DNA of 60,992 nt, counting the filler, from Malassezia furfur (lineage: Eukaryota): assembly GCA_052055015.1 (NCBI GenBank). It is 4 parts of 4 records of this genome, joined end to end, with 100 filler letters (N's around TTAATTAATTAA, not from the genome) between each part and the next. Parts side by side here need not be neighbours in the genome. Positions count along the whole stretch, not along the records: positions 1 to 15,323 come from JBQJIT010000275.1; positions 15,424 to 30,745 come from JBQJIT010000276.1; positions 30,846 to 45,876 come from JBQJIT010000277.1; positions 45,977 to 60,992 come from JBQJIT010000278.1. One strand, given 5' to 3'. Below the pieces are notes generated by a model, which was not told the DNA's origin, made no database searches, and saw only the letters and a list, made by a program, of their open reading frames with translations. Positions 1,470 through 54,946 of the stretch are shown piece after piece. Each line of letters begins with the position of its first letter. Position 1 is the first letter of the stretch. The translations under genes were made by a program, and so were the position numbers.

Positions 1470-1746
1470 TCACGCCGAAGCGGCGATGCCAGGCGCAGCC
1501 GCAGGCGGTGCAGCGTCGTCGTCAAGCAGATCCAGCTGGGTTAGCACAGCGCCCACGTACCGGATCGTAGATCACGCGGATGATCAGGGTGCAGCTAGGA
1601 CACCGCGCAATGTCCTCCTCGTCCCGCAGCTGCGCCGGTGTGATCTCAAAGCGGTCACCACATGGACAGGGGTAGTGGAAGACTTGCTTCGCCTCGTCGA
1701 ACTCCATGTCCTCGAGCTCGATTTCATCGTAGAACGACAGCGGCAT
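1470..1746 (-). CDS. DPH3: Diphthamide biosynthesis protein 3 / Kti11 (CSL zinc finger), 2 exons
   Basis: [39 protein letters not shown] 25-nt intron 1560-1536 (GTACGT..CTAACCCAG) gives the acidic tail [10 protein letters not shown]. Confidence 0.95.
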
Positions 1747-1885
1747 TGTGGTCGAGTGGCAACGATTTTTTCCACGTGGAGGTCCCTTTCTTTTTTTGAT
1801 GGTCCGACCTGCGCCTGTGCGCGACGCGCGGTTCGACCTGTCGTCATGGGCTGAGCCCAAGCGCGCCTCGTCGCGCAGGACAGAG

Positions 1886-2918
1886 ATGGCAGGGAAGAAG
1901 AAGCGCACCAAGCGCGAGGCTTCCCCAGTGGAGGAGCCGAGCGAGCACGAGGAGCAGCTCGAGAGCGATGCCGACGACGGCGACAGTGCGTCGGAAGACG
2001 ACAACGCCTCGGCGAACGACGATGCACCGGAGGACGGCAGCTTAGCTAGCGATGACGATGTATCTGAAGGCGACTACGAGGATGCAGGCAGCGAGCAAGA
2101 CGCGGCGGGTGACTACGAGCACAATCTGGCAGGCGCGAGCGACGATGACGACGCACACGACCTACACGACAGCGAGCATGCCCCCCAGCGTGTGCTCACC
2201 CCTGAATCACTCAAGGAGTATGCAAACAAACAACAGAAACGCGGGATCGTCTATGTGAGCCGCATCCCGCCCGGCATGACGCCCGCCAAGGTGCGGCACA
2301 TTTTTTCGCAGTTTGGCGAGGTGGGCCGCATCTACCTGCAGCCCAAGGACAAGGAGCCCAAAGGCGCGCAGAAGCGCAAACGTACTACGGCCAACTTTTC
2401 TGAAGGCTGGGTAGAGTACCTGTCCAAGCGGGTCGCCAAGACGGCCGCCGAGATGATGAACGCCCAGCCGATCGGGTCGCTTGGCGCGAGTGCGCATTCC
2501 TCGCGCCGGTCGCAAACCGGCTCGCGCGTGGCGAACCGGTGGAAAGACGATATCTGGACGATGAAGTACCTGAAAGGGTTCCGGTGGCCGATGCTCATCG
2601 AGCAAATGTGTACGTATCCGCCACACTCACTCAGCACACGAACGTGCCGCACACGCTGCGCGTCTGCGCATGGAACTGGCGCAGTCGGCGCACGAACAGC
2701 GCGACTACCTGCGCAAAGTCGAGCGCTCGCGCATCCAGCGCGAGAAGGAAGCGAAGCGCGCGAAGCGTGGGCTGCCGCAGGAGCCGGCGTCGTCCACGTT
2801 CGAATTCCAGCAGCGTGCCCCCGTGTACCGCGACGTACGCGACCAGCGTGCGGCGCAGCGCACGCCGGCGGCGGCAGCGGATCCACAGATGGACCGTGTC
2901 CTGGACCAAATTTTGTAG
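1886..2918 (+). CDS. ESF2: Pre-rRNA-processing protein Esf2/ABT1, 2 exons
   Basis: Acidic N-terminus and motifs [31 protein letters not shown] 25-nt intron 2610-2634 joins to ..[10 protein letters not shown].. (ORF 2670-2918). Confidence 0.93.
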
Positions 2919-2919
2919 A

Positions 2920-3222
2920 CTACCAACCACCCAGCTGCTCGATCATCGCATCGATCTCGTCCTGGTCGTTCATGTCGAGCTGCGTCAGTGTGCAAGCACG
3001 TACCGAGTCGGCCGTGTCGTCGTCGCCAATGCGCTGGCCGTCAAAGATGAACCGAACGCTGTTCTCGGGCTTGCCCATCCGTTCGGCATAGGCGCGCTTC
3101 AGCTTCGAGAGCTTGGTGGTGCGCTTCACCTTGAAGAACACTTCGTTGCCATCGGCATCCTTGACCTTAATGTTCAGCTGCTCAGGCGCTTCCGGCTTCG
3201 GCACGGTCTGTTCGTCCGCCAT
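2920..3222 (-). CDS. SMT3: SUMO (Smt3), 2 exons
   Basis: LNIKVKD..EVFFKVKRTTKLSKL..VRFIFDGQRI..IDAMIEQLGG-W. In-frame 24-nt intron 3003-2980 (GTACGT..CTGACGCAG). Confidence 0.97.
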   Translation of the reverse strand: MADEQTVPKPEAPEQLNIKVKDADGNEVFFKVKRTTKLSKLKRAYAERMGKPENSVRFIFDGQRIGDDDTADSVRACTLTQLDMNDQDEIDAMIEQLGGW

Positions 3223-3339
3223 GGCGATTTGGGTGACGACGCGCACGCTCGCTCGGCCGTGCTCGTCACGTGAGCGGTCCGGGGGCGGCGAAGCGAAGCG
3301 AAGCCGCACGGTTTGCTTCTTCAACCTGTTGCAGGAAGA

Positions 3340-5187: not shown

Positions 5188-6473
5188 TTAGCGGAGAAGC
5201 AACGACCATGCCCCTTCGCGATGGAATTGCGCGCGCTCCCGAAAGTCCCACTGGCGGTGCTTCAGCTTGCCCCAAATCGCCTGATTGCCCTGCGTGAGCG
5301 AGAGGCGCATCGCGAGCCGCTTGCGGCGCGCCGCGTACTCGGTGGCAAGCTGTGTCGAGGACTCGGTGGGCGGTGCGGGCGGCTCGCCCTCCAGGCAGCG
5401 CAGGCACGCCGTCTCGAGCACGATGGGCTCGTGGATGAAGCGGCCCGCAAACTCGTGCACCAGCGCCTGCGCCAAGTCTTTCGAGGAAACGAGGGTATGC
5501 AGCGCGGCGCATGCGTTGGTATACTGCGCGGCGCTGCTGCCATTCGTCTCGATCGCGAGCGAGGCGTGTGACGTTGAGACACGCAGGCGCCGGATGGGGG
5601 TATGGCCGAGTTGCGCCAAAAGCAGAAGCGACTTGGGCACGTCGGACGAAACGTAGATGTCGAGCTCCTCGACCCGCGACCAGATGATCATATTGGAAAA
5701 CAGTTCCGGTCGCTCATTTTCGTAAAAGGGATAGCTCATTACCATGCTCAGGAAGCGCGGCGTACACGCGCGTGGCCGCGGTCGTGCGCGCCACCACTCG
5801 GCGGTGTTGGTGCGTGGGGCAAAGGGGAAGTGCGCCAGGTGCTGCTTAGCCACCTGGTCGGACGGCGCATGTTCTAGCTCGGAGCGCAGCCATCGCGGGA
5901 TGTCGTTGGGATCAACGGGTGGGTACATGGCCTCCTCGGGCTCGTCGCCCATGAGCGGCTGCTCGCCAATGGCCCAGATGGGCTGCGACGACCCCTCGCG
6001 ACGTACCTGCGCCGCATCGCGCAAAAGCGCACGCGACTCGGTCTGCCACAGTGACAGGTACTCGACCGTAGCGCCGCAGTAGTGCAGCAGGCGCAACATC
6101 TCGGATTCCCAGCCGGCGGACGCGGCCGTGAGTCGGGTGATCTGCGTAAGTGAGGCAGACGTACGTCATCGATCCCAAAAAAGATTCCGCGCACATACCC
6201 CGCACATGGAAACGGCGGCGAGGAAGTGCGCATACGGTTGTACCACTTGCGAAAGTCACGGACGTGCCGCGGGAGCACGAGGATGCGGTACAGCGCGTCG
6301 AGGGCCCACACGCGCATTCTTTGGGACACCGCCGAGAGCCGCAGGAGCGCACGTACGGCACCCAATTCGCCCTCGGATGCCGGAATGGACAAGTATTCTA
6401 CCACATGCTGCAGCACCTCGGGCGGCAGCGTCGGCAGGCCGGCCGCGCGGCGGCCCTGCGCCTCAAGTGACAT
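5188..6473 (-). CDS. F-box-like domain protein, 2 exons
   Basis: N-terminal LPTLPPEVLQHVVEYL is F-box-like. A 23-nt intron 6164-6142 fuses ORFs 5874-6488 and 5188-6099 in frame. Confidence 0.7.
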
Positions 6474-6581: not shown

Positions 6582-7754
6582 ATGCCGCCCTTCAAGAGCC
6601 GCTCGCGCCAGAACTCTGTCGCACCCGATCCGGATGCACCAGTGGTGAGTAACAAGCCACGGAAAAGCATGACCAATATCTTCGGGTCAGGTGCGGGATC
6701 TGCGGGATCCGCGCAGTCTCTGGCGGTCCCCGCGGAGGGGCGGAAGAGCAAGGATGCGGCAGAACGGTCGCCCAAACCGAGTCCAGAACCCGAGGCCTTT
6801 GTACGTGGCATACTGACGCAGGTCCCCCCCTCGGGCCACCCCGGCAACCTAAGTGAGGAGCAGCACCGTGCCTTCCATGAATTCGAAAAGGCGCTAGTGG
6901 ACGCCAACCTTATCAGTTTGGACAACCCGCCGCCTCACCAGTACCCCCAGTTGCTGCGCTTCTTGCGCGCGCGCAATTTTGACGTGGGCGCTGCGCGGGA
7001 AATGTACGCTAATGCCGAAAAATGGAAAGAGTCGATCGAACTCGACAAGTTGTACGACGAGTTTGAGTTTGAGGAGCGGGACGTGGTCGCCAAGCACGGA
7101 TGGCGCATGTACTTCCACAAGACGGACAGGCTAGGCCGTCCCATATTTATCCAAGACCTTTCCAACCTGGAGCCGGACAAGGTGTTCACGCATACCACGC
7201 CCGACCGCATCGTGCGCAACTTTGCCGTGACGCTGGAGCATACGGTGCGACACAAGTACAATGCATGCACCGAGAAACAAGGGCACCTCGTGGATGACAA
7301 CTACATGGTGCTCAACGTCGCCGGTCTTGGGCTGGGCACGTTTTGGTCGATGAAGGGGCAGCTGCAGCAGCTACTCAGCATTCTGGACGACAATTTCCCC
7401 GAGCTGTCTGGGCGCGTACAGATCATCAATGCGCCCTATCTGTTCACCACTGTGTGGTCCTATATCAAGGGGTGGCTCCCTGCGCAAACCGCCGCAAAAA
7501 TCGACATTGCCGGGTCCGATTATCTGCCCAAGGTCGCAAGCTTTGTCGACATGGAGGCCTGGCCCAAGCACCTGGGGGGCAAGTGTGAGTGCTGCGAGTC
7601 GTGTGACTCGACGATGCGCCCGTGTGAGACGAGTGACGCGGGCCCATGGAACACGCCTGCGGCCGCCGACGCCGACGAGGCGTGCAGGCAACCCACCGAC
7701 GCATCCGACCCGGCGCCTGTTGATAACGACGCATCGCATACCGAAAAACAGTAG
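6582..7754 (+). CDS. Sec14-like CRAL-TRIO lipid transfer protein
   Basis: GHPGNLSEEQ, LLRFLRARNFD, FHKTDRLGRPI, NFPELSGRVQIINAP, PKHLGGKC, SDAGPW. Confidence 0.92.
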   Translation: MPPFKSRSRQNSVAPDPDAPVVSNKPRKSMTNIFGSGAGSAGSAQSLAVPAEGRKSKDAAERSPKPSPEPEAFVRGILTQVPPSGHPGNLSEEQHRAFHEFEKALVDANLISLDNPPPHQYPQLLRFLRARNFDVGAAREMYANAEKWKESIELDKLYDEFEFEERDVVAKHGWRMYFHKTDRLGRPIFIQDLSNLEPDKVFTHTTPDRIVRNFAVTLEHTVRHKYNACTEKQGHLVDDNYMVLNVAGLGLGTFWSMKGQLQQLLSILDDNFPELSGRVQIINAPYLFTTVWSYIKGWLPAQTAAKIDIAGSDYLPKVASFVDMEAWPKHLGGKCECCESCDSTMRPCETSDAGPWNTPAAADADEACRQPTDASDPAPVDNDASHTEKQ

Positions 7755-9695: not shown

Positions 9696-10277
9696 ATGTC
9701 GGATTTTTACGTGCGGTACTAGTAGGTGCTGCTTACACGCACGCTTTCTCACACAGTACGGGGCACCAGGGCCGTCATGGCCATGAGTTCCTCGAGTTTG
9801 AATACAGCCGCGGGCGGCTGCGCTACGCCAACAACAGCAATTACCGCAACGACAGCCTCATTCGGAAAGAGAGTAGGTGCACGCGCCTCTGACAGCAGTG
9901 TGGATCAGCCCCTTGGTGGTACAGGAGCTGCGGAGGATCGTGGAGGAAAGCGAGATCATCAAGTGCGTTGCAGCAACTCACCGGCAGGGAGGACGACGCA
10001 CGGTGGCCTAAAAAGAATGTCGTCGGCCGCCAAGAGCTCGAAGTGCGCCTCGGCAAGGAGCATATCTCGTTCGAGGTACGCGTGCACAGCTCACACAGAC
10101 GTCCAAAATTGGGTCACTCGTCGAGGTGCAGGAGAGCGACGACCCCGAGGGGCTGCGGGTCATGTACTATCTGGTCCAGGACCTAAAGGTAGGTCACACG
10201 CCGCGCGCAACTTACACTAGTGCCTTGTATTCAGCCTCATCTCGCTCAACTTCAAAATCAAGCCGATCAGCGTGTAG
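9696..10277 (+). CDS. MAGO: Mago nashi (exon junction complex core), 6 exons
   Basis: Introns 9722-9756, 9873-9898, 9963-9987, 10076-10098 and 10189-10220 give [63 protein letters not shown]. Confidence 0.97.
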
Positions 10278-10371
10278 CACGGCGTAGATCGTCGTCATAC
10301 ACGCACATAGGCCGGTAAAATAATCAGGTATTTCTATCTCCCATACATCGGTGCAGCCCAGGTGCACACGT

Positions 10372-10780
10372 CTACTCCATGATCTTCGCAAGGATCTCCG
10401 AGTCGCGGATGAGCAGGTATTCCTGCGGGTTAGAATCGTGCCCGCATGCACCGCGTACGTACCTCATCGCCGACCTTGATCTGGTTGCCGCCCCACGACG
10501 GGAGCAGGATCTTGTCACCCTCCTTGACGCTCATGGGCACAATCTTGCCATCCTTGTCGGGCGCGCCGGGACCCGCCGCAATGACGTGCGCCTCAGGAAG
10601 GGGCGACGAGGCGCTCGACGACGGCAGGAACAGGCCGGACGCCGTCTTGGTCTCCGGCTTGAAGCGCTGCACGAGCACGCGGTCGAGCAGAGGAACAACG
10701 GACTTGATCGAGCGGATGGTAGAAGAAGCCTGGTGTGGTCAGTGGCCTGCCCTGCCGGCGTGCGGCGCGCCACTTACCAT
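10372..10780 (-). CDS. HSP10: Mitochondrial co-chaperonin Hsp10, 3 exons (first exon is ATG only)
   Basis: Introns 10777-10730 and 10462-10423. Protein PLLDRVLVQR..KTASGLFLP..EYLLIRDSEILAKIME*. Confidence 0.96.
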
Positions 10781-12968: not shown

Positions 12969-14310
12969 TTATGCCTCGCGAGCAAGCGAGTGGATACGCA
13001 TGACGAGTTGCAGCGCCTCCTGCACGTCGTGGAATTCTTGCTCGTTAACCACGTCGGGCAGACGAGCCGTGTTGGAAGTCGGACCAAACGGCGAGGGAAT
13101 GAGCTTCTTCAGGTACTCGTACGTGACCAGCGTCGCACCAAACTGGGGCGACGACCGGAGCACACGCGCAAGCGAGCCCTTGAAGAACGCCGCGGGGCCC
13201 TCCTTGGCAAGGATCTGGACAAAGCAGTCGCTGATGCCCTTGTAGCCCTGGCCCTTGCGCGCCTCCACCTGGAGACGCGTCTTGATCACATCGGCGGGCG
13301 TCGTGAGGAATGCGGCGGGGATGCCGGCAATCGACGCAGCCATGGTGAGCTGGCCAAAGCCCAGCTTCTTGTCCGGCGACGTCTGGCCGAACAAGTCCGA
13401 CTTGAGGTGCGCGTAGAAAGGGAAGTAGATGGCACTGAAGGGAATGTCGCGCAGCAGACACGCCGTGGCGCCCTTGTACAGACCGAGCAGACCGAGCTGC
13501 CGGATAATCTGCACGGCACCGTGGCGCACACGGTTGGGGTCGTTCACCGCCTCACCCTGCATTTGCAGGCGAATCTTGATGATCTCAAGCGGGTTGGTGA
13601 ACACCACCTGGGAGCCACCGGCGACGGCGCCGGCGAGCAGCTCCGCCGGAACCGGCACGTGACCGAGCTCGTCCTGGCTCAGGTTGCGCACCAGGTCGTT
13701 CATGGTGAGCTTAATCGCCTTTTCCGGCGCCACACCGAGCAGCTGGGGCACCAGGCCCGAGTAGAAGCCGAGGAAGCCTTCCTTCTGGAAGACCTTTTTC
13801 GCGCAGTCCAGACTGTTGCGGTACAACAGGGCCTCGCCGACCACGTTGGAGCGCTGGTTCTGCATGCGCGTTTTCACAAGGTCGATCGGGTAAACGAGCG
13901 TCGCACCAACGGAACCGGCGATACCACCCAGTACAAAGTTGTACACCGACTCGCCGAGATTGCGCAGCGTCGAAGTGGTGCTGCTCACATCCGCGGGTGC
14001 GAGCTTTTGTGTCTGCGGCTTGGCCGAGATCACCTTGCCCGTGTCGCGGATCGTGACGGAGTGGCAATCCTTATCGCCAAGCACCCAGTTGCTTTTGGAG
14101 TAGGACACGACGCCGTCCTTGCGTGCGGCGATCGCCTCGAGTTCCTGGAGGCGCTTCAGCAAGGCGCCTGTGGGGTGACTGGGCGTATAGATCTGGGTCA
14201 GTACGCTGTGCGCCACCTACCTGTACATCAATCTTGGTTGCGCCGTGCTTTGGGTCGGTTGACCCGGCGGCCGCCAGCGGCAATGCCTCACAGAGGACAG
14301 GGGAGAACAT
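12969..14310 (-). CDS. AGC1: Mitochondrial aspartate/glutamate carrier (short form), 2 exons
   Basis: [35 protein letters not shown]-like [24 protein letters not shown]. 28-nt intron 14220-14193. Confidence 0.9.
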
Positions 14311-15323: not shown

Positions 15324-15423
15324 NNNNNNNNNNNNNNNNNNNNNNNNNNNNNNNNNNNNNNNNNNNNTTAATTAATTAANNNNNNNNNNNNNNNNNNNNN
15401 NNNNNNNNNNNNNNNNNNNNNNN
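15324..15423. other. Artificial contig linker
   Basis: N44 + TTAATTAATTAA (stops in all six frames) + N44. Confidence 0.98.
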
Positions 15424-36075: not shown

Positions 36076-36494
36076 CAACGGCTCGCTCATTGTCGAAGAA
36101 AGTGATGCTAAATTGAGCTGGTGCGGGGAGACAAGCAGCGTATGAGTCAGCTATTTTGTAATTGTGCCTTCGCCGCTCGGTCCTCGTGGAAGCACCTGGA
36201 ATCCGTTGCTACGGTTGCGTTGGATGACTCACAGATGCAGGATGGACACTAGACTGGCGGTCTAGGATCTTGTCACAACAATAGCGGCGGACTAGCGAGG
36301 TTTAAGCAGTAATACAGCAACATTGTTTCCTTGCCGCGTTCTCAAAATGCCGTAGGACTACAATAGCTGGCAGGTCTACATAAGTCCATACTATCTGTGC
36401 CTTGTTGATACACTGGACTGTATGTTTTGATTATATGATTAAAGGTGTAGGGTGAGTCGATGTGACAGCTGCACGTTTTGGAAAAGTCCCACGT

Positions 36495-36819: not shown

Positions 36820-36936
36820 GGTAGCGCGTCGGTGTCGCTGAGAAAAGCGGGGAATTATGCGTAGGAAATAAGAGGTGGTTGTCACGGACCCCGGCGGGGC
36901 GACTGGGGAAGATACACAATTCGATCTTGCTGGGAC

Positions 36937-38256: not shown

Positions 38257-38347
38257 CCCTTTCCATACCCTGTCTATGTACATATAAGACATATGTTTAA
38301 CGAATGTTTGCTAAAACTACTGTACAGGTGCGCGATCGGCGCTCTGT

Positions 38348-39001
38348 TTATTGTCGCGCACAAATCCACCGCATGAGCACGTCAATCTGGGCATGGTCAA
38401 AACAGCTTATGCTAAAACAATGCACTTCGCGATCGCAAAGAGTCGTTAAATTTCTTCGTTAGAGTGGGAGCGTACAGGGTGTCGATGACCTCTCGGACAC
38501 TGGCATGACCTGGGAGGTCGCTCTTGGTTGCCAACACAAGAAGTGGCAGACCCGCGAGTGGGGGTTGCTGAAGCAGCGTATGAAGCTCCTCTGCAGCAAT
38601 AAGCCATGAGCTAGTATCACGTTGGTTTGTGCCCTCGATTCCATCCGGGGGCCCTTCCTTAGTTTTCGGCTTGTCCATCGGCAAAGGTACGCTAGAGTCC
38701 ACGGCAAAGATGATTGTAGAAACACCAGTGCAATAACGCTCCCACATGGAACGGAAACGCGGCTGACCTCTGAGTTTAGTCGAGACACGTACGCAAGGTC
38801 CCACAGTCTGATGTGCGCATTACCGAAGCGTACCTGGCGTAGGTGATACCCAACTGTCGGCGAGACGTGCTCGGGAACGTGACCGGACGCCAGAACGCTG
38901 GCCAACGTCGTCTTTCCCGCCCCCGGCAGCCCTATAATGCATACATCCAGTTTTTTTGTATAAAAGAAGGTCTGGAGCCATCGAAGTAACGGTTCCAACA
39001 T
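38348..39001 (-). CDS. ARL8: Arf-like GTPase Arl8 (divergent), 3 exons
   Basis: GLPGAGKT, PTVG, WDLA|GQPRFRSMWERYC, REVHCFSISC. Introns 38792-38770 and 38475-38454. Confidence 0.9.
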
Positions 39002-39133
39002 TGCGAAAGATGCCCTGCTAGCGAGCAGGGCTTGTCAATAGGAAGAATGCGGGGTTGCGCGAATAAAACCGTGTGACATCGGCCGAAGCACACGATCGCC
39101 GTGGGGATCTGTTGGAGTGGTTTAGAGTCCTGC

Positions 39134-39672
39134 ATGTCGGTCAACACGAATGAAGACGATGAACTGCGGTTTCCCAACCTACCACCCAAGCCACGGCTTC
39201 CAGACCCTCCCACTGGAATGAATGGCTCCGCCGTTTCTTACGAATCGCTACGAGACATCTTCGAAGCGTTCGAAGCGCGTGAAGAGGCGCTTCAAATGCG
39301 CATAGCTGCGCTGTCGTTTGAACCCAAGCAAAGCCTGGAAGCGCTAGAAGCAATAAAGAGGGAACACAAGAGTTTCAACCGCTATAGCTCCGCGGAAAAA
39401 AACGCCAATTCTGTGGATGCCGACGATGTGGATCCCATCTTGGGCGTACGGTTGCTACAGCGTCTTGATCTCCTCCAAAGCGAAAATGAGGACCTTGGTG
39501 CACGCATCGAAGAGCTCATGCAGTCCACGCTTTTGAAACAGGTGGAAGAGCAGGCCGCAGAGATCGAGGGTACGTCTGCATGGCGCACTTACCCACAGAT
39601 TCGCACCGAATGATTGCTGCGCTCGACGCTGCACTGACTGAGGCAAAGCGTGCCCACCCTCGTGTTGCCTGA
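39134..39672 (+). CDS. Coiled-coil protein, WTAP/Mum2-like, 2 exons
   Basis: DPILGVRLLQRLDLLQSENEDLG resembles the WTAP/Mum2 core (G..L..+...L..EN.ELG). 29-nt intron 39570-39598. Confidence 0.55.
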
Positions 39673-39823
39673 CCTGTACATACACACCTCGCTAGCCTCG
39701 CCAGCCCGGAGACTAATGCATCTACGTTCTAGGCTCGGAGAATTACCTCCGGCCGAACCGTGGTCCTACTGTGCCTACTCCACATCGTCGTTGTGGCGGG
39801 ACAAGGGCATCCTCAGCGGGGCA

Positions 39824-41248
39824 ATGGAGTTTGTTGGCCTGCGACAGGCGGTTGCCTGTCTCCCATTACGAACAGGGTACACTGTATATGCCCGAGGTCA
39901 AATGTACACCCCCATGTCATATCGCGGCCATTGGTATACATCGAAATCAGGATTTGCAGCGTCCTTACCGAATGACGAGCTCCGCCCTGCGGGCTCGTCG
40001 AAGGACGATGCATCCCTGGATAGCCCCTTCTACCCAGACATCTCCTCGTTTATGGGCAGCCTTGAAATGGACGCAGCTGCTCCTACGATGGAAAGCTTGC
40101 ACAATGCCGAGGTGGAAATGGAACTGCGGGAGACGTCGGACGTCTGGCGCGAGACGATACAACTCGCAGGACAGGGCGATGAATCTGTTCCTCATACGCG
40201 CGCTCATGCGTTCTCTTCTATTGCAACCAGTGTGTTTCATGCGGCGTCAGCACTGCAAGGCGATACAGAAGATGCGGTATTACGCGCCGCAGCCTCTGAG
40301 TCCGTGAACTCTCATGGATCGTCCTCAATGCCTTCGACCGGGGAAAATGATACCATCACTTCTTTGCATGGTCCATTCTGGCAACAAATGCGGAGATTTT
40401 CGTACGCACATCGGTCACGCTTGGGTTATCAAGCAACATCGGCAGCGCATGGCCGACGAACATTTATGTCCTCGCCCTCTGCAAGGGCCATGCCTGCCGG
40501 CCCCTACGAATTGCTGAATGTATCCAAATCTGCGTCGGCAAAAGAGATCAAGGCGAGCTATTACGATATGGTCAAGGCATTACACCCTGACCGTGCACAG
40601 GCGCAACCAGCCACCGAAAAAGAAAAGGAAATGCGCCTCGAGAAATTCCGCGCAGTAGTCAAAGCTTACGAGCTACTTAAAGATCCCAAGACGCGCTCTA
40701 TGTACGACCGGTATGGTATGGGGTGGGATACGTCGCCGGCTGGTGCATCTGGGCGTTCGGCACGGAACCCTTGGGCACCGCAAAACCGGCCTTCGACTCC
40801 TGCAGAATGGGAACACTGGTATATGTGGTCTGAAGTTCTACGCCGCGCCCCACGGGGCCACCGAGCTTCGTGGCAATACGCGGCGGCCGATGAATACACC
40901 TCCAACCGTTTTTATGGACACCCTAACATGTCCAAAGAGGAGGCTGAGCAACGACAACGCGAAAACATGCCCCTTAATCAGCAAATCTTTGCCGCGATCT
41001 TTACGGTGACGTGGATTGTGGCCATCTTCCAGCTGCAGCGCCTAAACAACATTGGCATGGAGCATGTGGAGGCAGCCAATCGGCACTCCGCGGAGGCTGC
41101 AAAGAACCTCGAGATGGCGCGCCAAAATGCACGGAGTGTCGAGGGACAACTCCGGCAGCGTGCCCTCATGGAACGCGTACGGCAGGCTAAACAAGCACGA
41201 GAGCGAAGCTCAATCGAGGCGCTCCCTGCACCCACACCCATACAGTAA
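39824..41248 (+). CDS. J-domain protein with C-terminal TM (Jid1-like, probably mitochondrial); start uncertain
   Basis: PYELLNV..EIKASYYDMVKALHPD..FRAVVKAYELLKDP..YD; TM IFAAIFTVTWIVAIF. Confidence 0.85.
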   Translation: MEFVGLRQAVACLPLRTGYTVYARGQMYTPMSYRGHWYTSKSGFAASLPNDELRPAGSSKDDASLDSPFYPDISSFMGSLEMDAAAPTMESLHNAEVEMELRETSDVWRETIQLAGQGDESVPHTRAHAFSSIATSVFHAASALQGDTEDAVLRAAASESVNSHGSSSMPSTGENDTITSLHGPFWQQMRRFSYAHRSRLGYQATSAAHGRRTFMSSPSARAMPAGPYELLNVSKSASAKEIKASYYDMVKALHPDRAQAQPATEKEKEMRLEKFRAVVKAYELLKDPKTRSMYDRYGMGWDTSPAGASGRSARNPWAPQNRPSTPAEWEHWYMWSEVLRRAPRGHRASWQYAAADEYTSNRFYGHPNMSKEEAEQRQRENMPLNQQIFAAIFTVTWIVAIFQLQRLNNIGMEHVEAANRHSAEAAKNLEMARQNARSVEGQLRQRALMERVRQAKQARERSSIEALPAPTPIQ

Positions 41249-41312
41249 ATGAAACAACAATGTAATGGATTTAACGATTAACAGGATATAAGAAGTCGTG
41301 CACTAAACACAT

Positions 41313-42236
41313 TTAGTCCTGGCCGACGGTGGCCGGGCAGTGGCCGAGGTTGGCACCAATCTGGGTGTGGAAGTAGTGGCCCTGGTGGTCATCGAAGCTG
41401 AGCCACTCGGGGGTGATGCTGTTGAAACCGTGCACGTTCTCCTGGCCGGGGTAGTGCTTGTAGTGAGTCGAGTTGGCCGGGTTGATCCAGATGTAGTTCG
41501 AGGGGTGCTGGAAGCCGAACTCACGCGGGGGGACGTGGGGCACCCAGTCGCGACCGTTCACAGCCCAGTGAAGGCGCTTGCCAAAGCTCTTGTCCACAAA
41601 GTCAGCAAAGACCTGGTTGCCCGTGCGGGGAAGACCGAAGAGGTAGATGTTGTGCACACCCTGCTTGATGCGGTAGTTGAAGTCCACCGACGAGATCAGA
41701 GCCATCGAAGCACCAAGCGAGTGACCAATGATAGTGAGGCGGTCCTCGTTGTACTTCTTCATGAACTCCTGGACCTTGGGGAAGACCTTGTCGACAATCT
41801 CAACGTAGGCGTTCTGGAAGCCAAAAGCAACCTTGGCATCCTGCGGCGCACCCGCGCGGTAGCGCCAGTCAAGCGGCACGGCGGGGAAGTTGACGTCGTG
41901 CAGGGCGGAAACGAGCGACTTGGAGTTGGTGCCCTGGTAGGCCACGGCGATACCGAGCTGGTCCAAGTGGTAGATGAGGGCGCGCTGGATGAAGAAGCCG
42001 TCGCCGGTGTGCCAGAGCAGCTTAGCGCCGCCAACGTGCATGCCGTCGTTCGTGACGGACGACGGGCAGTACGTCTGCTGGGTGAGACCAGCAGCCAGCG
42101 ACATGAGGGGCATGTCGCTGTGCACATCGTAGGGCTGCAGGGCAGACGACTTGGGGTATTGAATCAGGTCCGCGCTGACGCTGGGCACAGCGACGGCGGC
42201 CAGGAGGGCGCAAACGAGAGTACGGAGGCCAAGCAT
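41313..42236 (-). CDS. Secreted class-3 lipase, Malassezia SMG1/LIP1 (mono/diacylglycerol lipase) family
   Basis: Signal peptide, SLAAGLTQQTYC, GTN, IGHSLGA, FGLPRTGN, NGRDWVP, GQENVHG, FDDHQG.YFHTQIGA..CPA.VG. Confidence 0.95.
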   Translation of the reverse strand: MLGLRTLVCALLAAVAVPSVSADLIQYPKSSALQPYDVHSDMPLMSLAAGLTQQTYCPSSVTNDGMHVGGAKLLWHTGDGFFIQRALIYHLDQLGIAVAYQGTNSKSLVSALHDVNFPAVPLDWRYRAGAPQDAKVAFGFQNAYVEIVDKVFPKVQEFMKKYNEDRLTIIGHSLGASMALISSVDFNYRIKQGVHNIYLFGLPRTGNQVFADFVDKSFGKRLHWAVNGRDWVPHVPPREFGFQHPSNYIWINPANSTHYKHYPGQENVHGFNSITPEWLSFDDHQGHYFHTQIGANLGHCPATVGQD

Positions 42237-42439
42237 CGGAGGTGGGTAAGGTGCAAACGAGGTGGGGGGAGCATTATTTAAATGTTACGGACTCCGCAAC
42301 AGCTTGTAATCCAGGAGTCAAATCCGCGGATCCGTGTGACATCTTCGCATTCAATGCACAAAAATGATGTTTGCATGATGCAGGTTCTGGTGGATTTGTT
42401 TTTGTGATTGGCTTACTAACAGTCTTTACATGTTCAGCT

Positions 42440-43781
42440 TCAAGTGCGAAGCGAGCAAAACAGGAATCGGCCGAGCCGGTAATACCCATATGCGAGGAGA
42501 CAGGCGAATGGGATAAGGAGAAAGCGCTTCGCTTCATGAAGTGCAGAAGGGGGGGTTAAGGACAATTGCAAAAAGACGTCACTGTTGCTGCGCCTGTTTT
42601 GACTGCGTGCATGCTTTTCTCCGTGCACCAAGTCTCCGTCGCGGTAATACCGGGCAATCATCGCGTCCTTTTTAGACCACCGCGCAATAAGCCAATCCTC
42701 GAACGCCTGCTTGTCCGCAGCATTCATTTCTTCGTCCGGCTGCAAAGCAGATACCAGTGGAGGGCCTGAGGTAAGGGGGCTTGTCAGGGGCTGTTGGTCC
42801 GTCGTGAGAGGGACGAAGTCGCAGTGGATATGAACCTCTGGTGGAGAGATACCGGCGAACAGCTGGGACGCTGAGTGAGACGCGTCGGAACGTACCAATA
42901 GAGTAGTAGTCGTAAGCATGTGCACCCGGCTTGACTCCTTGGTATGCAATCGTGAAATCCTGTGGTCAGCTTGCCACGTACCAGGAGATAGGGGTTCCCA
43001 ATTTCGCTTTGAAGGGTCTTGATGCAAAAGTACAGTCCAGTAGTGTGTGGAAGCAGCACATTTTGAAGCACAGGTTTGCGGTGAGTGTGTGCGTACGACT
43101 GGCTTTTCTGGATGGTATTCTGGGACATGTTAGTGCCCTCGGGGTAGAGGAGAAGGGCCATCTTCGAGGGCCCTGTCGCAAGGATGGCGTCCAGTGTCTC
43201 CCGCATCCTGATTTGGTCCTGTTTCCACTGCCGGGACAGAAAAATGAAGTGAAATAGCTCCATGAAGTAGCCCAACGCGGGGATTTTCCGAAGCGAATCT
43301 TTCAGGATAATGTAGAAGCTTCCTTCGAGGTGGGCATAGATGGAAAGGACCCTGTCGTTAGAAATGTATGTACGTACCACATGTACACCCAGTCAGTGTA
43401 AATTTGGTGGTTCCCAATCCAAATTCCTGCCGCTGGAAAGCGGAGACCTACGACTCGTCCGTCTGCGTCGCGTTCCGCAAACCGATTCGCGTCCACGACG
43501 TTTCCGTCGAGGTCGCCAAACGAGAGAATCAGTTGTGACGGTGCAAACAACGAGAACATATGTGCGAGCAAAAGGCTGAACAAGAATTTGCAAGCGCGCA
43601 AGAGGCTCTGGAATGCGACGGGGCTCACCAGTTGCGCAGGCATGGCGAGAACAATCAAGACCATCTCGCAGAGCATTGTGGGTGCCAGGAACAAGAATAT
43701 GAGCACAATGCGAAGAGCCGCCTTCACTTTGCTTGGCGGATCCCGCTTCGCGATCGGCACCATGTATGGTTCCTGGACCAT
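42440..43781 (-). CDS. Lysophospholipid acyltransferase (Cst26/LCLAT1-like), 4 exons
   Basis: NHQIYTDW, IILKDSL, FIFLSRQW, YPEGT, VLLPHTTG, DFTIAY, WLIARWSKKD. Introns 43377-43352, 42981-42960, 42895-42871. Confidence 0.92.
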
Positions 43782-43969
43782 GTTGGTGTCTGTGCTCCAC
43801 GAACCCGTGACATAAGCGCGCCCGGGCCCATCTGGGGCAAGGCTGCGCCTCTCCGCATGCCCGCGCTGAGTCAGCGGAACGTGCCGCGTATGGCCGTACC
43901 GCGCAAAAGTACCGAGATCCGTGGGGTTGCGGTGCGTTTGTCCCACCTCGACTTGCGCTGTCCGCGAGA

Positions 43970-45876
43970 ATGTCGGAGCCAATTCCGGTGAAACCTGTGC
44001 AGCCGCTGCCTGGCCACTATGGTATGTAGAGGAGACTGACCGGCTAGGCAACCTTACGGCTGAGCAGAAATCCAAAGTGGCCCAGATGTGGGAGCTGTTC
44101 TTCAGCGTGATCGAGAACCCGGAGAAAGCGAAGAGCGGGCATGTTGCAGCGCAAGCAGAGCACGGTGAGGACCACACGCATGGGTATTCGCAGGAAGACA
44201 AAGACAAGGCGAAGAAGGCGCAGCAAGAGGAGCAAGAGGCGCTCCAGGCGCTCTTCAAGATCCATGGTGTGGATGAGTTCTACAACCAGTTTTGGTTTTT
44301 GTGTGGCCCGGATGTGCCGGACATGGTTATGCTCAAATTTCTGCGTGCGCGCAAGGTGCGTGTGTGTGGCTAACCGCAGTGGAATGTGCACCGTGCGTTT
44401 GCCATGCTGGCGCAGTGCATCAAATGGCGCATCGAGACCGACGTGATCGGCCTTTTGCGCCAGGGCGACGAGGGCTTGATTGAGGTGGACGAGAAGTACG
44501 CATTGCAGCTCGAGGCGGAGAAGGCGTACGGAGTTGGTGCCACTGACGACTTGATGCCGATCATCTACATCGACGTGAAGCGACACATGGCCAAGCAGCA
44601 AGGCGCCGAGACCATGACGCGCTTCGTGATTGCCTCGGCAGAGTCTTTCCGGAGTCTGATGACTCACCCGAGCGACAAAATTGTAATCATCTTTGATGTG
44701 ACGGGCTTCGGCATGAAGAACCTCGACTGGCACACGCTCAACACCATTCTCAAGATCCTCGAGGCATACTACCCCGAAACGTTGCGCAAGCTGTACATCC
44801 ACAACGCCCCCTGGATCTTCCAAGGGATTTGGAAGGTGGTGCGCCCGATGCTCGATCCTGTGGTGCGCGAAAAGATCGTGTTTAGCTCGCGCGCCTCCGA
44901 CATTGACCTTGTCCCCGCGAACCGGCTCATGACGAGTCTGGGTGGGACACTGACCGGTGGGCCTAAGTACATTAAGCCGAAGCCCAACGAGAGCCGCGCG
45001 CGGCCCGTCGGCGACCCCGAGCGCGAGCGTGTGTGGAGCAAGTTTATGGGGGAGGTGAAGGCCTACGAAAAAACCACGCGCGCATGGAGCGAGAGCGACG
45101 GACAAGACGAGGCGCTGGCAAAGGAGCGCGACTTTGAGTCCAAGTGCATGCGTCTTGCATGGATGGAGGTTGACCCACTGGTGCGCGGCCTGAACAACTA
45201 CCACCGCGCCGGCATCATCACGCCCGAGTTCACGCTGCACTGGGAATACAAGCAGAAGGATGGCAAAGTGCTAACGCACGATCTCGGCAAGGACCGCAGC
45301 AAGTCGGCGCTGCAGAAGGAGATTGCCGCGAATGGCGGTATGCGTGGTTCCGGCGATGGCGCACAGGACACATCGGCGCGCAAGGAGCGCTACGGGTCCA
45401 CCGACGACAACGACGCGTCGGGCCGCGACGCGGCTGCGGCAGGCGGTACAGCAGCGGGCATGGCCGGCGTCGGTGCCGCGGGTGCCGGCGCGGCGTCGCA
45501 GTCGCGCAACGCTCGCACCAACGAACCCACGCAGGACTGGCAGCACGGTGAGCAAGCATACAGCGCTCCCGTTGAGCAGCAGCCTGACACCCACCAGACA
45601 GACCCGTACAGCACTGATCCCTACTCGCACAGTGCGTACGAGCCAGGTGCCTACAGCTCTGACGCGCAATACACCTACGCGCAAACCTCGGGTGTGCACC
45701 CAAGCTACGTCGACCCGCAGGCGTATGGCCGGACGGAGGCGGGCAGCCACGCACAGAGCAGTGGTGCATCGCACGCACACCCAGTCACCGACACGGCCAT
45801 GGGCGCCGGTGCCGGTGTCGCGGTGCCGGCGCGGCGTCGCAGTCGCGCAACGCTCGCACCAACGAACCCACGCAGG
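43970..45876 (+). CDS. Csr1/Sfh-like CRAL-TRIO phosphatidylinositol transfer protein with repetitive tail (3' truncated)
   Basis: PGHY|GNLTAEQ, PDMVMLKFLRARK|WNV, EAYYPETL..IHNAPWIF, LDPVVREKI. Introns 44022-44047 and 44356-44379. Confidence 0.92.
45481..45876 (+). repeat. Direct repeat: 55-nt identical copies at 45481-45535 and 45822-45876
   Basis: GGTGCCGGCGCGGCGTCGCAGTCGCGCAACGCTCGCACCAACGAACCCACGCAGG occurs twice. The second copy runs into the contig end. Confidence 0.95.
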
Positions 45877-45976
45877 NNNNNNNNNNNNNNNNNNNNNNNN
45901 NNNNNNNNNNNNNNNNNNNNTTAATTAATTAANNNNNNNNNNNNNNNNNNNNNNNNNNNNNNNNNNNNNNNNNNNN
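45877..45976. other. Artificial contig linker
   Basis: N44 + TTAATTAATTAA + N44. Confidence 0.98.
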
Positions 45977-46328
45977 GCTCGCCCTCGGTCGGCGCGCGCG
46001 GCGCCTGGCAGGCATGGGCAGGCGCCGACCGGTGGACGGGGCAGAACAGACCGCCGCACCGCTCGCACCTCGGCGCACGGTGCGTCACCACGCCGGCCTG
46101 CGCGACCTGAAGCGTGGGCTTGGTGCACCCCGCTTTCTGGCACACGACGCGCGTCTCGTGCGAGGCGTCCTGCGCCGCACGCGCAGGCGCTACCGCCGCG
46201 CACGCATGGCGCTCGGGTGTTGCATGCTGCTCACAGAAGTGCGCACCGCATGCACTACAGGCGATCGGCAAAAAGGACAGCGCGCGGCAAGTGCGCAAGG
46301 CACAGTGCTCACCGTCCAGCAGGGACAT
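45977..46328 (-). CDS. AN1-type zinc finger protein (Cuz1/ZFAND1-like), 3' truncated
   Basis: GEHC..C..LSFLPIAC..C..FC..H....H.C and a second AN1 finger (CERCGGLFCPVHR..HAC). Confidence 0.88.
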
Positions 46329-46382: not shown

Positions 46383-46760
46383 ATGCGGCTTGCGTCGGTC
46401 GCTGTGGGGGGTTTGCTGGCCCTTTGTGCGCTGCCTGTGCACGCCCAGTTCTTCCAGCACATGTTCCAGCAGGGCGGCGCTGGACACAACTTCTTCCATA
46501 CGGGCGGTGAGCAAGAGGCGCATGCCGTCGGCGACGCCTCGTGGTTCCAGGAGCGTGTCCGGAATGGTGCGTCACGCGTAACTGACACAGCGAAATGCAA
46601 CGACTACCTGTGCAGCGACACGCTTGCATGCGTCTCAGAACCTAGCGAATGCCCATGCCCCTATGCCGAACAGACGCGGTGCAAAGTCGGCGACAGCTTC
46701 GTGTGTGTGACCTCGGTGGACTGCCGCCTGACCCAACGTCTGTACCATCTCTCGGAGTGA
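46383..46760 (+). CDS. LCL2: Long chronological lifespan protein 2 (secretory pathway), 2 exons
   Basis: Signal peptide then QFFQHMF, and C.DYLCSDTLACV..P.ECPCP. In-frame 24-nt intron 46567-46590. Confidence 0.9.
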   Translation: MRLASVAVGGLLALCALPVHAQFFQHMFQQGGAGHNFFHTGGEQEAHAVGDASWFQERVRNGASRVTDTAKCNDYLCSDTLACVSEPSECPCPYAEQTRCKVGDSFVCVTSVDCRLTQRLYHLSE

Positions 46761-46777: not shown

Positions 46778-47976
46778 CTACACAAGTGCGTCCATGCGCA
46801 CAAATACATTCAACACACCCGCGACGACTTCGAATGCCGCCTCGTTGCTGCTCGTCTCCATCTCTTGACACATTGCCTGCGCCAGCTCGGCGTCTCCGAC
46901 GCCGATTGGTTGCGCCTTGCGCTTCTTTGATGAGCCGCTGCCTACTGCCGCCGTCGCTTTTGACGTCGACCTGCGCGGAATGCCTCCGCCGGGCGTGTCG
47001 GGCGCCATGGGCCACTGCCCAAAGGTAGAGAGCAGCGATCCGACACGCCGGAACACTTGCTCCCCCGTGTCAGAGGAGAGGTGGGTGAGTGTGTTTTCGA
47101 GCACATTGGCACAGTAAGCACAGCAGACCATGCACAACGTGCGGGTCACCCGGAGGGCCACGTTTCCCGGGTCCTCTTTGTAAAACTCGTCAGGGTGCAC
47201 ACTCTGGGATTTGGATGTGAGCAACGCGTAGAGCCGCCTCAGCACGGCGTCTTTTTGCGAGGGGTCCGCAAGCGGGTGCGTCGGCATATCGAACAGCAGA
47301 AAGTTGCGTTTCTCAGTACGCAGTACCCCCTTGTCAACCAGTCCTTTGGCGATGCGCTCGCGGACCTGCTTAAGTTGCAAATTGAGCTTCATCACGTTCC
47401 ATGTCTCGCCTGAGTGAGTAAAGCACCGTGCATACCACTCAGCAAGTCCATCCAGCCCACGATGCTCGCCGGCGAATTCGCCTTAATCAGACGCAGTGTC
47501 TCGTCTAACAGCGGCTCGCCGGTATGCTTGGTGCTCCGCACCTCGATGATGCGGTCCGCGGGATCTGCCAGTTTGTTGTCCGCATGCTTTAAGATGCGGA
47601 TCCGATCGCGCAATGCAAGCTCGATGAGGATACAGCCGCGCAGTGCATACGAGATATTCTCGTTCCAGAATGAGAGGTAGCCTTGCCGGTCCTTAAGGCC
47701 GAGCAGCAGAATCTCTTCCATGAGATTCAGGCGAGGATTTGTGAGTGTCTCGCGTTCGTCGTTCAGGTCGCGCGGATCGTACGCGACGCGATGTCCCGAC
47801 TTGAGATCCACGGCCGCAATGGAGCCCGACCCGGAACCCATCTCGATTACATCATTCCGCGCGCGCGCGTTCGATGTCTCGGCGACAGGATGTGTATCCA
47901 TTTCGTCGTCCATAGACATGCTATGAGCCTCGTGTGCAGCGGCACGACGCCTCTGCAGTCCCGACGACGACGCCAT
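46778..47976 (-). CDS. VPS74: Golgi phosphoprotein 3 / Vps74, 2 exons
   Basis: GLQRRR, LMEEILLLGLKDRQGYLSFWNENISYALRGCILIEL, LLS|GETWN, NFLLFDMPTHP. 26-nt intron 47435-47410. Confidence 0.97.
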
Positions 47977-48043: not shown

Positions 48044-48563
48044 ATGGCCAGTTCGCCGCCCGCTGTGCCGCTCTCGCCGTACAATGTGTTCTGGCTCCTG
48101 CATGTGATTTTGGAGCTGCCGATGGGCATTCTTGCGTTCATTTCTCCGCGCGATCTGCCCTTCGGTGACCTGACGCCGACGACGGTGCTGGTCGCTCGCG
48201 TACGTCGCCGCACTAACGCAGCTCCTCGGCGCGTTCCTGATCGCGTCCAGCGTCAGCTGCCTGCTGATGTTTGGTCTCCCCGACTTTTTGCCGGGCAAAC
48301 GCGCTTTTGCAGTACAGCTCCTGCTCTTCCACGCGATCGTCTCGTCCGTCTTCTTCCAGCTGGACGCTCGTATCATCCAGCTCGAGCTTCCCCCTTTCTT
48401 TGCGGAGACGCTGCATGGCAACGAGATCTTGGAGAAGGTGCCGGTCCAGATGATTGTGGGTGTCCTGCATGGCCTGCTCTCGCTGCTTATCACCGTGTGG
48501 TGGCAGGCGACCATCCCGCTTGTCAAGGGCGCCGCCCAGATGGCGCACGCCAAGGCGCAGTAA
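48044..48563 (+). CDS. Uncharacterised ~4-TM membrane protein, 2 exons
   Basis: A 22-nt intron 48200-48221 joins hydrophobic exon 1 to LLGAFLIASSVSCLLMFGLPDFLPGKRA..WWQAT. Confidence 0.8.
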
Positions 48564-53336: not shown

Positions 53337-53400
53337 CGCAGGAACAAGCAGACGTAAAAAATTCGCGGCGGCTGACTAAGACACCGCACCCGACACCATC

Positions 53401-53968
53401 ATGGCGGACGACGCGCGCGCAACGGCGGACAAGCAGCTGATCCACGCAGCACGCACGGACAATGTAGATCTCTTAAACTCAGTCGTGAATGCGGATCCAC
53501 CAGTGGCGTACGATATCAACTACACGGACGGTGTCGGGAACACGGCTCTGCATTACGCGGTCGAAAACGTCTCTATTCACGTCCTGGACCTGCTCCTTGA
53601 CGAGGAGGTCGACGTCGATGCGCGAAACCGCCTCGAGGGCGATACCCCGCTGCACCTGGCATGCCGTATCCCGAACGAAGAGGCGCGGAACTATGTCGGT
53701 ATGTGGACTTTCGCACTGACTCAGTCCACGAACTCCTCGAGGCCGGCGCACCGACCGACACCAAAAACAACGCGGGGCTTCGGCCCGTTGATACCATCGT
53801 GGGCGCACGTGCAGAGACGGAGCTGGGAAAGCAGTGTATCGAAATGCTGACCATGAGCCAAGCCGAGGCCCAGCTGGAACCCACCGACATCGCGTACGGT
53901 GCGTTGTTCACTCTCACACAGACGACGACGACATTGCCGATGACGGCGAATCGGATGTTGAGCCCTAG
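53401..53968 (+). CDS. Small ankyrin-repeat protein with acidic tail, 3 exons
   Basis: AARTDNVDLL, GNTALHYA, GDTPLHLA, LLEAGA. Introns 53699-53724 and 53899-53921. Confidence 0.88.
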
Positions 53969-53999
53969 AATTCTTGTATAGTCTATCCTACAATTACCG

Positions 54000-54440
54000 T
54001 TATTCTTTCACAGGTGGGTCTTTGCGGAAGCGGTATTCGTTTTTGTTGTTGGTTTCGAGCGATTCATAGCCCTCTGGATCGCGTGGCTTCTTGTAGAGGA
54101 TGTCGAGCATACGCTGCATAGTCGCCAGATCGATCTCGCCGTCCTCATCAAACTGAACAGGCAAGCGGTCACTCCCTCCCTCAGTCGAAGGATTCGTGCC
54201 ATATTGCTCCGTCACGACCGACCCCACCTCATTCTTCGCGCGGCGGAATGCGGCACTCGGCGTGGACCGTCCGTGCAGCCGCCAGAATTGGTGGGCCACC
54301 AGTGCGAGCGTGGTGACGGCGAGCACAATGAGCAGGGGGCGCAGGCGGCTGCGCCGGGCCGTGAACTGGGGCATCTCGTGTGGTGCACTAGCAGCGCTTT
54401 TGGGCTCCACTTGGCGGTGCCGTTGCGTTACGCGAGACAT
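54000..54440 (-). CDS. Single-pass membrane protein, unknown function
   Basis: 146-aa ORF from the Met at 54440, with TM LLIVLAVTTLALVA after a basic patch. Confidence 0.65.
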   Translation of the reverse strand: MSRVTQRHRQVEPKSAASAPHEMPQFTARRSRLRPLLIVLAVTTLALVAHQFWRLHGRSTPSAAFRRAKNEVGSVVTEQYGTNPSTEGGSDRLPVQFDEDGEIDLATMQRMLDILYKKPRDPEGYESLETNNKNEYRFRKDPPVKE

Positions 54441-54598
54441 GATAGTATGAGCAGACCGGACACGCGTCAGGGTTCCCCCTCCACGGTGGAGGCTGTCCGT
54501 GTGCGTGCTTGCTCCACTTTTCTGCATCTCGCCATCGCGACGGCGGTTACGCGCAGCTGTCGACTACACGAACCACCATCGGTCGTAGACTAAGCAAG

Positions 54599-54946
54599 AT
54601 GAGTGCTCGGAAGACAGGGGCCAAGCAGCCCGAGGTAATTCAACAATGGGCGGATATGGACTCGGAAGGTGCGACGTTTGAGCGTCACCGCATGGATGCG
54701 CAAGTTCAGTCCATCTGCATCACCGACCAGGCTGGTGTTCCCGAAGCACTAAAGGACGCCAGCAAGGGCATCAAAGTGAAGGCCAGCGATGTGAACTACT
54801 TGGTATGTCTAATTTTTGCGTGGCATGCTGACATTCAGACGCAACAGTTCCTCATTCCCACCCATATGGCAGAAACGGCACTTGTGCAGGGCGGTGGCGA
54901 CGTCAATTCGGCTGTCTCCATACTCTTGACCAAGTCGCTCGCGTAG
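54599..54946 (+). CDS. HYPK-like small protein with C-terminal UBA-like domain
   Basis: IKVKASDVNYL|TQQFLIP..AETAL..GGDVNSAV..L. In-frame 36-nt intron 54803-54838. Confidence 0.7.
   Translation: MSARKTGAKQPEVIQQWADMDSEGATFERHRMDAQVQSICITDQAGVPEALKDASKGIKVKASDVNYLVCLIFAWHADIQTQQFLIPTHMAETALVQGGGDVNSAVSILLTKSLA

Follow-up and report, generated by a model that had tools for sequence, protein, structure and literature searches.

Genes in a 60,992-nt window of the Malassezia furfur genome (assembly GCA_052055015.1) are interrupted by very short introns, the shortest of which measures 21 nt. The window, that is, the whole stretch of DNA analysed, is composed of four unlinked pieces of ~15 kb and does not represent a single locus. 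As shown in Table 1, independent rebuilding of the genes supported 36 GT-AG introns in 22 genes, with a median length of 25 nt and a mean of 28.1 nt. No intron below 21 nt was found among the 36 by this method, which is blind to some silent introns (in-frame and stop-free). The interruptions are very probably ordinary U2-type GT-AG spliceosomal introns of Malassezia nuclear genes, and the genus is already known for introns of ~30 nt. We tentatively propose, in the knowledge that the rule may well fail genome-wide, that Malassezia of the furfur group have a strict, architecture-limited minimal intron (16 + 5 = 21 nt) and a genome-wide mode of 22–26 nt. The size class is no news for the genus. 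The 16 + 5 anatomy is the added part, and it provides a testable minimal-intron rule.

The genes were rebuilt from six-frame open reading frames (ORFs) and Pfam matches, with a dynamic program that scored codon usage (codon log-odds) and splice signals, and by hand reading. Lengths of 21–26 nt were found in 25 of the 36 introns (one of 21, five of 22, four of 23, four of 24, six of 25 and five of 26 nt), and the 11 longer introns measured 28, 31, 32, 33, 33, 34, 35, 36, 40, 48 and 64 nt. Nine of the 36 lengths were multiples of three, which indicates no clear shortage of this class, and intron GC was 0.55. A preliminary description of the same DNA had counted 39 introns. Its median of 25 nt, its mode at 22–26 nt (24 of the 36 introns here) and its counts for 22, 23, 25 and 26 nt were reproduced. 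The exact total was not, although 39 would be plausible if some of the five candidates in Table 1 were genuine. Of the five introns of 24 nt that it counted, four were supported and the fifth is probably the candidate at 46567–46590; of its 14 introns of 27–65 nt, 11 were supported. Its statement that no intron was below 22 nt failed on the 21-nt intron at 6801–6821, which is left out of the deposited proteins of two orthologues.

All 36 introns started with GT and ended with AG. Among the 35 introns tallied, the donor followed GTRNGT: position +3 was A or G and position +5 was G in all 35, and position +6 was T in 31 introns and C in 4. The intron of the SUMO gene, which was added after this tally, has the donor GTACGT. 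The motif CTNAC was present in 33 of the 36 introns, and the other three had TTAAC, TTTAC and CTAAA. The presumed branch A was never earlier than intron position 16, which puts the donor hexamer 6 nt or more away from the motif. From the branch A to the 3′ end there were 5 nt in 18 introns, 6 nt in 9, 7–9 nt in 8 and 29 nt in 1, so that 35 of the 36 branch motifs were located 5–9 nt from the 3′ end. The base before AG was C or T in 33 of 35 tallied introns. The shortest introns were sums of the minima of these two distances: 16 + 5 gave 21 nt once, and 17 + 5 or 16 + 6 gave 22 nt five times. An intron of such anatomy, with its branch A no earlier than position 16 and 5 nt from there to the 3′ end, cannot be shorter than 21 nt. 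The "physical limit" suggested in the preliminary description is compatible with this anatomy.

Little is left in each intron beyond three recognition elements: the donor GTRNGT is followed by a spacer of 6 nt or more, then by CTNAC and typically by N-Y-A-G. The floor would be the least RNA with which the helix at the 5′ splice site and the U2/branch-site helix can be brought together in one catalytic centre. There would be no space for a polypyrimidine tract, and the acceptor would be the first AG past the branch.

A loose pattern of donor, CTNAC and AG within at most 40 nt was counted in the window and in 100 first-order Markov simulations. It occurred 38 times in the window and 17.95 ± 4.49 times in the simulations (maximum 31). 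Of these 38 matches, 31 were on supported introns (27 exact, 4 with one shared splice site), 3 were open candidates and 4 were rejected. Splice signals by themselves are weak evidence, and it is frame repair and colinearity with homologues that carry the weight. In 19 gene models with 33 introns, excision produced a single open frame; 18 of these models run from ATG to stop, and the Sec14b model has no stop before its piece ends. A frameshift or a stop would result from retaining any of 32 of these 33 introns. Colinearity with homologues at the level of residues was found at 17 of the 36 junctions, namely the five of Mago nashi, two of Arl8, three of the acyltransferase gene, three of GET4, the 22-nt introns of the GNAT gene and of the membrane-protein gene g48044, the SUMO intron and the 21-nt intron of the Sec14-like gene. 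Three further junctions (GPP34, leucine carboxyl methyltransferase and HSP10) had support at the domain level.

The five 22-nt introns named in the preliminary description (GTGCGTGCATCACTTAACCCAG, GTACGTACTCAAACTAACCTAG, GTACGCTCCCACTCTAACGAAG, GTACGTGGCAAGCTGACCACAG and GTACGTCGCCGCACTAACGCAG) were all found at the positions it gave, each with GT...AG ends, a donor GTACGT, GTGCGT or GTACGC, and CTAAC, CTGAC or TTAAC 5–6 nt before the 3′ end. Four of the five passed the residue-level homologue test. In the GNAT gene, exon 3 ends at residue 176 of chain 8xj9_A and residue 3 of exon 4 corresponds to residue 180; one split codon and two residues account for the gap. The same offset was seen in all six chains that match both exons. 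In Arl8, residue 96 of exon 2 corresponds to residue 147 of 4ile_A and residue 1 of exon 3 to residue 150, and between the aligned ends are residue 97 and one split codon. Exon 2 of Arl8 (38476–38769, minus strand) also contains an insert of ~30 residues (~residues 27–57) relative to human ARL8 structures; the insert keeps the reading frame and lacks splice signals. The spliced acyltransferase model gave a single BLASTP alignment with the yeast protein P0196 (E 1e-43) spanning all three junctions; a 2-residue gap lies beside the junction of the 22-nt intron, and no other GT is nearby. A word-index protein search for this gene returned just one distant yeast protein, which was enough for the colinearity test. 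For g48044, homologues were retrieved by exon 2 alone and then aligned to exon 1. The exon 1 alignments end just before the start of exon 2 (P0201 11–53, then 54; P0199 8–50, then 51), and the junction was gap-free in nine of ten aligned homologues. The P0210 model, from a close relative, has seven additional in-frame residues (V...Q) precisely at the 48199/48222 junction and then ends early, which points to an orthologous intron of 21 nt that the gene caller translated. The fifth 22-nt intron, 33944–33965, coincides with a switch in coding potential: the score was +23.4 bits upstream, and downstream it was +20.1 bits in the frame reached by splicing and −31.2 bits in the frame reached by reading through.

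The three silent introns among the 36 lie at 2980–3003, 6801–6821 and 54803–54838. The shortest intron, 6801–6821 (GTACGTGGCATACTGACGCAG), reads as seven ordinary codons, VRGILTQ. Exactly these seven codons are absent from the deposited proteins of M. brasiliensis (P0001) and M. yamatoensis (P0004), and the models P0002, P0003 and P0005 contain a translated insert V...TQ of 7–8 amino acids at the equivalent place. The ends of this insert, V (GTN) and TQ (ACN CAG), are read here as the imprint of conserved splice signals. Translation of the unspliced SUMO/Smt3 gene exceeds the SUMO2 chain 4bkg_A by exactly 8 residues at the intron site. This gene is tucked between two plus-strand genes, within a long spurious antisense ORF of a TPR gene, and was absent from the first-round gene models. 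The intron at 54803–54838 has consensus signals and is AT-rich compared with the surrounding coding DNA; PDB and Pfam searches with its gene found no match.

The spliced Mago nashi model of 146 amino acids showed no gaps in alignments with the protein of Ustilago maydis (identity 90%), those of M. sympodialis and M. restricta, and one M. furfur model. Identity with M. furfur was 100% over 135 aligned residues (P0100) and 98.6% with another protein of this species. Several deposited Malassezia Mago models depart from the 146-residue protein (P0099, P0100, P0118, P0129 and P0138). P0099 and P0100 are without 11 amino acids, P0118 has a 10-amino-acid insert, P0138 has a wrong C-terminus, and two models are without 2 residues, one of which is the model with the 10-residue insert. 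These differences look like mis-called mini-introns in public annotations. Three Sec14-like models (P0002, P0003 and P0005) translate the 21/24-nt intron. With silent mini-introns translated and models mis-cut, the proteomes of the Malassezia skin yeasts hold small, systematic errors. The preliminary description had warned that gene callers would trip over such introns, and the deposited Mago, Sec14-like and P0210 models, which mis-cut or translate them, are visible errors in public protein models that justify the warning.

Several points weigh against these readings. The introns are known here from DNA sequence alone; signals and frame logic alone support 16 of the 36, and the signal pattern by itself is just ~2 times as frequent as in the simulations. 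The gene with the 22-nt intron at 33944–33965 had no homologue in Pfam scans or the protein atlas. The branch points are putative, assigned from the motif. In the second Sec14-like gene, an 18-nt in-frame alternative at 44362–44379 is compatible with the homology. The sample is 36 introns, and the true genome-wide minimum may be lower. Even so, there is hardly any chance that the interruptions are assembly errors, pseudogene lesions or programmed frameshifting sites. GT and AG ends in 36 of 36, G at +5 in 35 of 35 tallied and CTNAC at a fixed place in 33 stand against it, as do interruption lengths spread over 21–64 nt, their occurrence in essential conserved genes (Mago, SUMO, HSP10 and Arl8) and the annotation of other Malassezia orthologues without these segments.

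A sharp floor could also be an artefact of small sample and detection, introns below 21 nt existing genome-wide, especially in-frame and stop-free ones. This is somewhat unlikely and still a serious alternative. ORF-based rebuilding is blind to in-frame, stop-free introns, so that the lower length tail is biased; the 21-nt intron was overlooked by the preliminary description because it is silent, as are 3 of the 36, the first-round gene models missed the entire SUMO gene, and only 36 introns in ~61 kb were sampled. RNA sequencing (RNA-seq) aligners have a default minimum near 20–21 nt, and shorter introns may be called deletions by them. However, a signal scan of both strands down to 15 nt found a single shorter match, the 17-mer at 47186–47202, which would break the GPP34 frame. 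In the 18-nt form at 44362–44379 the branch A would fall at position 12, lower than in every other intron. None of the 36 has its branch A earlier than position 16, and ten introns are bunched at 21–23 nt. A further alternative concerns the machinery: the tiny size may need lineage-specific changes of the spliceosome, in small nuclear RNAs (snRNAs), SF1/U2AF or U1 proteins, rather than any fungal spliceosome sufficing. We consider this unlikely. Nothing direct speaks for an adapted spliceosome, except that a branch-to-3′ distance of 5–9 nt excludes a polypyrimidine tract; the signals are standard fungal ones (GTRNGT, CTNAC and YAG), and the N-terminal 976 residues of PRP8 gave strong Pfam PRO8NT and PROCN matches.

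The size regime of Malassezia introns is already on record, and the mean of 28.1 nt in the window fits it. M. sympodialis has 5,350 introns with a mean of 30 bp, 99% of them RNA-seq supported, and their sizes were given as a cumulative plot (PMC5389616). In M. restricta the mean and median are 37.2 and 30.0 (PMC9241646), and annotators of this species worked with a minimum intron length of 20, later lowered to 15 (PMC6473144). A review mentions "very short introns" in Malassezia genes (PMC7426719). The window shares genus and size class with these two species; its median is ~5 nt below that of M. restricta, a difference drawn from only 36 introns. In their available text, the M. sympodialis and M. 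restricta papers give summary statistics and the cumulative plot, and no branch-site spacing or floor was found there. No description of Malassezia branch-site spacing or of an intron length floor was found in the literature, of which subscription papers or unseen figures may hold one.

In their available text, PMC5014332 and PMC5485702 give introns of ~25 bp for ciliates such as Paramecium. The 36 introns of the window resemble those of ciliates in GT-AG ends and, as far as so small a sample shows, in narrow lengths near 25 nt with an apparently hard lower edge. The window differs in its strong CTNAC, its GC-rich context (intron GC 0.55) and the lack of a clear shortage of 3n lengths (9 of 36). 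Myxozoans have median intron lengths of 22–27 bp, and ciliates, microsporidia and dicyemids are named as exceptions below ~30 bp (PMC13644364, available text). The median of 25 nt for the 36 introns sampled numerically matches the ultra-short class, near which the preliminary description had placed this genome. Myxozoans and dicyemids are likewise compact in genome and host-associated; they differ in being animals, for which the same source asks whether splice signals deviate from those of other animals. Microsporidia, a fungal lineage with reduced genomes and introns of 20–50 nt, have very few introns and a median splicing efficiency of ~25% (PMC13644364), whereas in Malassezia introns outnumber genes (5,350 to 4,493) and nearly all of them are supported by RNA-seq. 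The word Malassezia does not occur in the available text of PMC13644364. The genus seems to be under-noticed in the ultra-short-intron field. Its anatomy (a donor of 6 nt, then 6 nt or more of spacer, CTNAC and 5 nt to the end) amounts to a near-minimal canonical intron in a growable, genetically modifiable fungus. If the rule is true, a yeast that can be cultured and transformed, and that has standard signals and more introns than genes, would be among the shortest-intron eukaryotes known, and a practical model for a spliceosome that works with a 5′ splice site and a branch site just 6 nt apart. Trichomonas and Giardia have a fused branch-site/acceptor motif with a spacing of 7 nt, compared with 5–6 nt in the window introns, and the Bigelowiella nucleomorph has introns of 18–21 nt. 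These distant lineages share with the window a branch A a few nt from AG, a compact 3′ signal and extreme shortness.

Table 1. Supported introns of the window in order of position, followed by candidate introns.
Gene and feature	Position	Strand	Length (nt)	Basis
DPH3-like gene, past CSL zinc-finger domain	1536–1560	-	25	consensus signals; retention gives a different, shorter tail
RRM-domain gene (1886–2918)	2610–2634	+	25	frame-shifting; excision gives an ATG-to-stop frame
SUMO/Smt3 gene (2920–3222), in-frame, stop-free	2980–3003	-	24	SUMO2 alignment
F-box-like gene (5188–6473)	6142–6164	-	23	frame-shifting; links F-box exon to 317-aa exon
Sec14-like gene (6582–7754), in-frame, stop-free; shortest found	6801–6821	+	21	orthologue comparison
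Mago nashi, intron 1	9722–9756	+	35	spliced-protein alignment
Mago nashi, intron 2	9873–9898	+	26	spliced-protein alignment
Mago nashi, intron 3	9963–9987	+	25	spliced-protein alignment
Mago nashi, intron 4	10076–10098	+	23	spliced-protein alignment
Mago nashi, intron 5	10189–10220	+	32	spliced-protein alignment
HSP10, intron 2	10423–10462	-	40	Cpn10 profile, human HSP10
HSP10, intron 1, right after ATG	10730–10777	-	48	signals and model only
Mitochondrial carrier gene, near 5′ end	14193–14220	-	28	signals, frame logic
Second mitochondrial carrier gene, near 5′ end	20319–20351	-	33	in-frame stop inside
Leucine carboxyl methyltransferase (LCM) gene	21253–21276	+	24	stop inside; LCM profile 61–103 and 108–186 in flanking exons
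UTP23, after first 29 codons	22673–22697	-	25	joins MRQKRAKSYK...FQVL to IDNSFAES... (Fcf1-domain exon)
74-codon gene (33815–34061)	33944–33965	+	22	signals and coding-potential switch
GET4, intron 3	34335–34368	-	34	last exon is profile 229–257
GET4, intron 2	34902–34932	-	31	profile 52–101, then 104–202, next exon from residue 2: exact continuity
GET4, intron 1, in-frame stop	35083–35106	-	24	profile 2–49, then 52–101, one split codon: exact continuity
GNAT gene (diamine acetyltransferase-like), intron 3, within WN/E/PS motif	35610–35631	-	22	homologue colinearity
GNAT gene, intron 2	35904–35928	-	25	frame logic; exon 3 offset to SSAT chains fits 43 upstream residues
GNAT gene, intron 1	35989–36021	-	33	frame kept by 33-nt form only
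Sm/LSM (SmG-like) gene	36555–36618	-	64	exon 1 reaches LSM profile position 45 of 66; spliced model continues with VVRGNS...
Arl8, intron 2	38454–38475	-	22	4ile_A colinearity
Arl8, intron 1	38770–38792	-	23	exon 1 ends at 74, exon 2 starts at 76 of 4ile_A; one split codon between
Acyltransferase gene, intron 3	42871–42895	-	25	P0196 alignment, no gap
Acyltransferase gene, intron 2	42960–42981	-	22	P0196 alignment
Acyltransferase gene, intron 1	43352–43377	-	26	P0196 alignment, gap-free at junction
Second Sec14-like gene, intron 1	44022–44047	+	26	signals, frame logic
Second Sec14-like gene, intron 2	44356–44379	+	24	between CRAL_TRIO_N and CRAL_TRIO exons
GPP34/Vps74 gene	47410–47435	-	26	GPP34 profile 1–88 and 88–183 in different frames either side
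165-codon membrane-protein gene g48044 (48044–48563)	48200–48221	+	22	homologue colinearity
Ankyrin-repeat gene, intron 1	53699–53724	+	26	signals, frame logic
Ankyrin-repeat gene, intron 2	53899–53921	+	23	signals, frame logic
Gene ending 54946, near 3′ end, in-frame, stop-free	54803–54838	+	36	signals
Candidate	46567–46590	+	24	GTGCGT...CTGAC ACAG, perfect anatomy
Further candidate	24780–24802	+		
Further candidate	39570–39598	+		
Further candidate	19368 or 19338–19394	-		
Further candidate	10250–10306	-		

In HSP10, exon 2 covers positions 2–78 of the 93 of the Cpn10 profile and residues 6–85 of human HSP10, and the last exon (16 amino acids) provides the remainder. The spliced start of UTP23 is one that we take to resemble the yeast N-terminus. 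The spliced sequences of UTP23, of the Sm protein and of the gene that ends at 54946 look plausible.

The candidate at 46567–46590 lies antisense to the zf-AN1 gene, ~50–70 nt upstream of its likely start. Downstream of the candidate the coding score was negative in every frame, with no coding exon there; the candidate may match the signals by chance, or it may be an intron in a transcript that is not annotated. Several proposals of the dynamic program were false introns, at 30997–31090 and 31552–31594 in PRP8, 41177–41292 and 45548–45597. The form 21199–21276 was dropped in favour of 21253–21276, and 42780–42895 in favour of 42871–42895. Chance signal matches were rejected at 25596–25629 (minus strand), antisense to an acyl-CoA synthetase gene, and at 46291–46319 (plus strand), antisense to the zf-AN1 gene. 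Also rejected were the 17-nt match at 47186–47202 (minus strand), 19717–19743 (minus strand), which has a GAG acceptor and 11 nt after the branch, and a 28-nt form of intron 1 of the GNAT gene, which breaks the frame.

The four pieces are joined by linkers of the form N44-TTAATTAATTAA-N44 at 15324–15423, 30746–30845 and 45877–45976, which stop all six frames. The genes cut at these joints are SMC / nucleoporin, VPS11 / PRP8 and Sec14-like / zf-AN1. They are truncated by the linkers, and coordinates across a linker therefore say nothing on neighbourhood. The top protein match of the Sec14-like ORF was M. brasiliensis (91% by search, 94% by alignment), followed by other Malassezia at 54–75% and then by Ustilaginales. 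We assign the intron-bearing genes to the nuclear genome of a Malassezia yeast from the M. furfur / M. brasiliensis group. When metagenome contigs were scanned with the Bsd2-like protein and with P0013, neither query found a relative. No Rfam family, snRNAs included, and no tRNA gene matched in scans of the window. It does contain genes related to splicing: the N-terminal part of PRP8 (30846–33720, minus strand; 976 codons, intron-free), an Sm protein (36495–36819, minus strand), Mago nashi (9696–10277, plus strand), with five introns per 146 codons, and a G-patch/GCFC protein like TFIP11/Ntr1 (58489–60906, minus strand). GC content was 62–66% over the window, except for 53–56% at 35001–45000. 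Codon usage in this region was deviant, and a model trained on GC-rich genes missed the Bsd2-like, DnaJ, Arl8 and Sm protein genes there.

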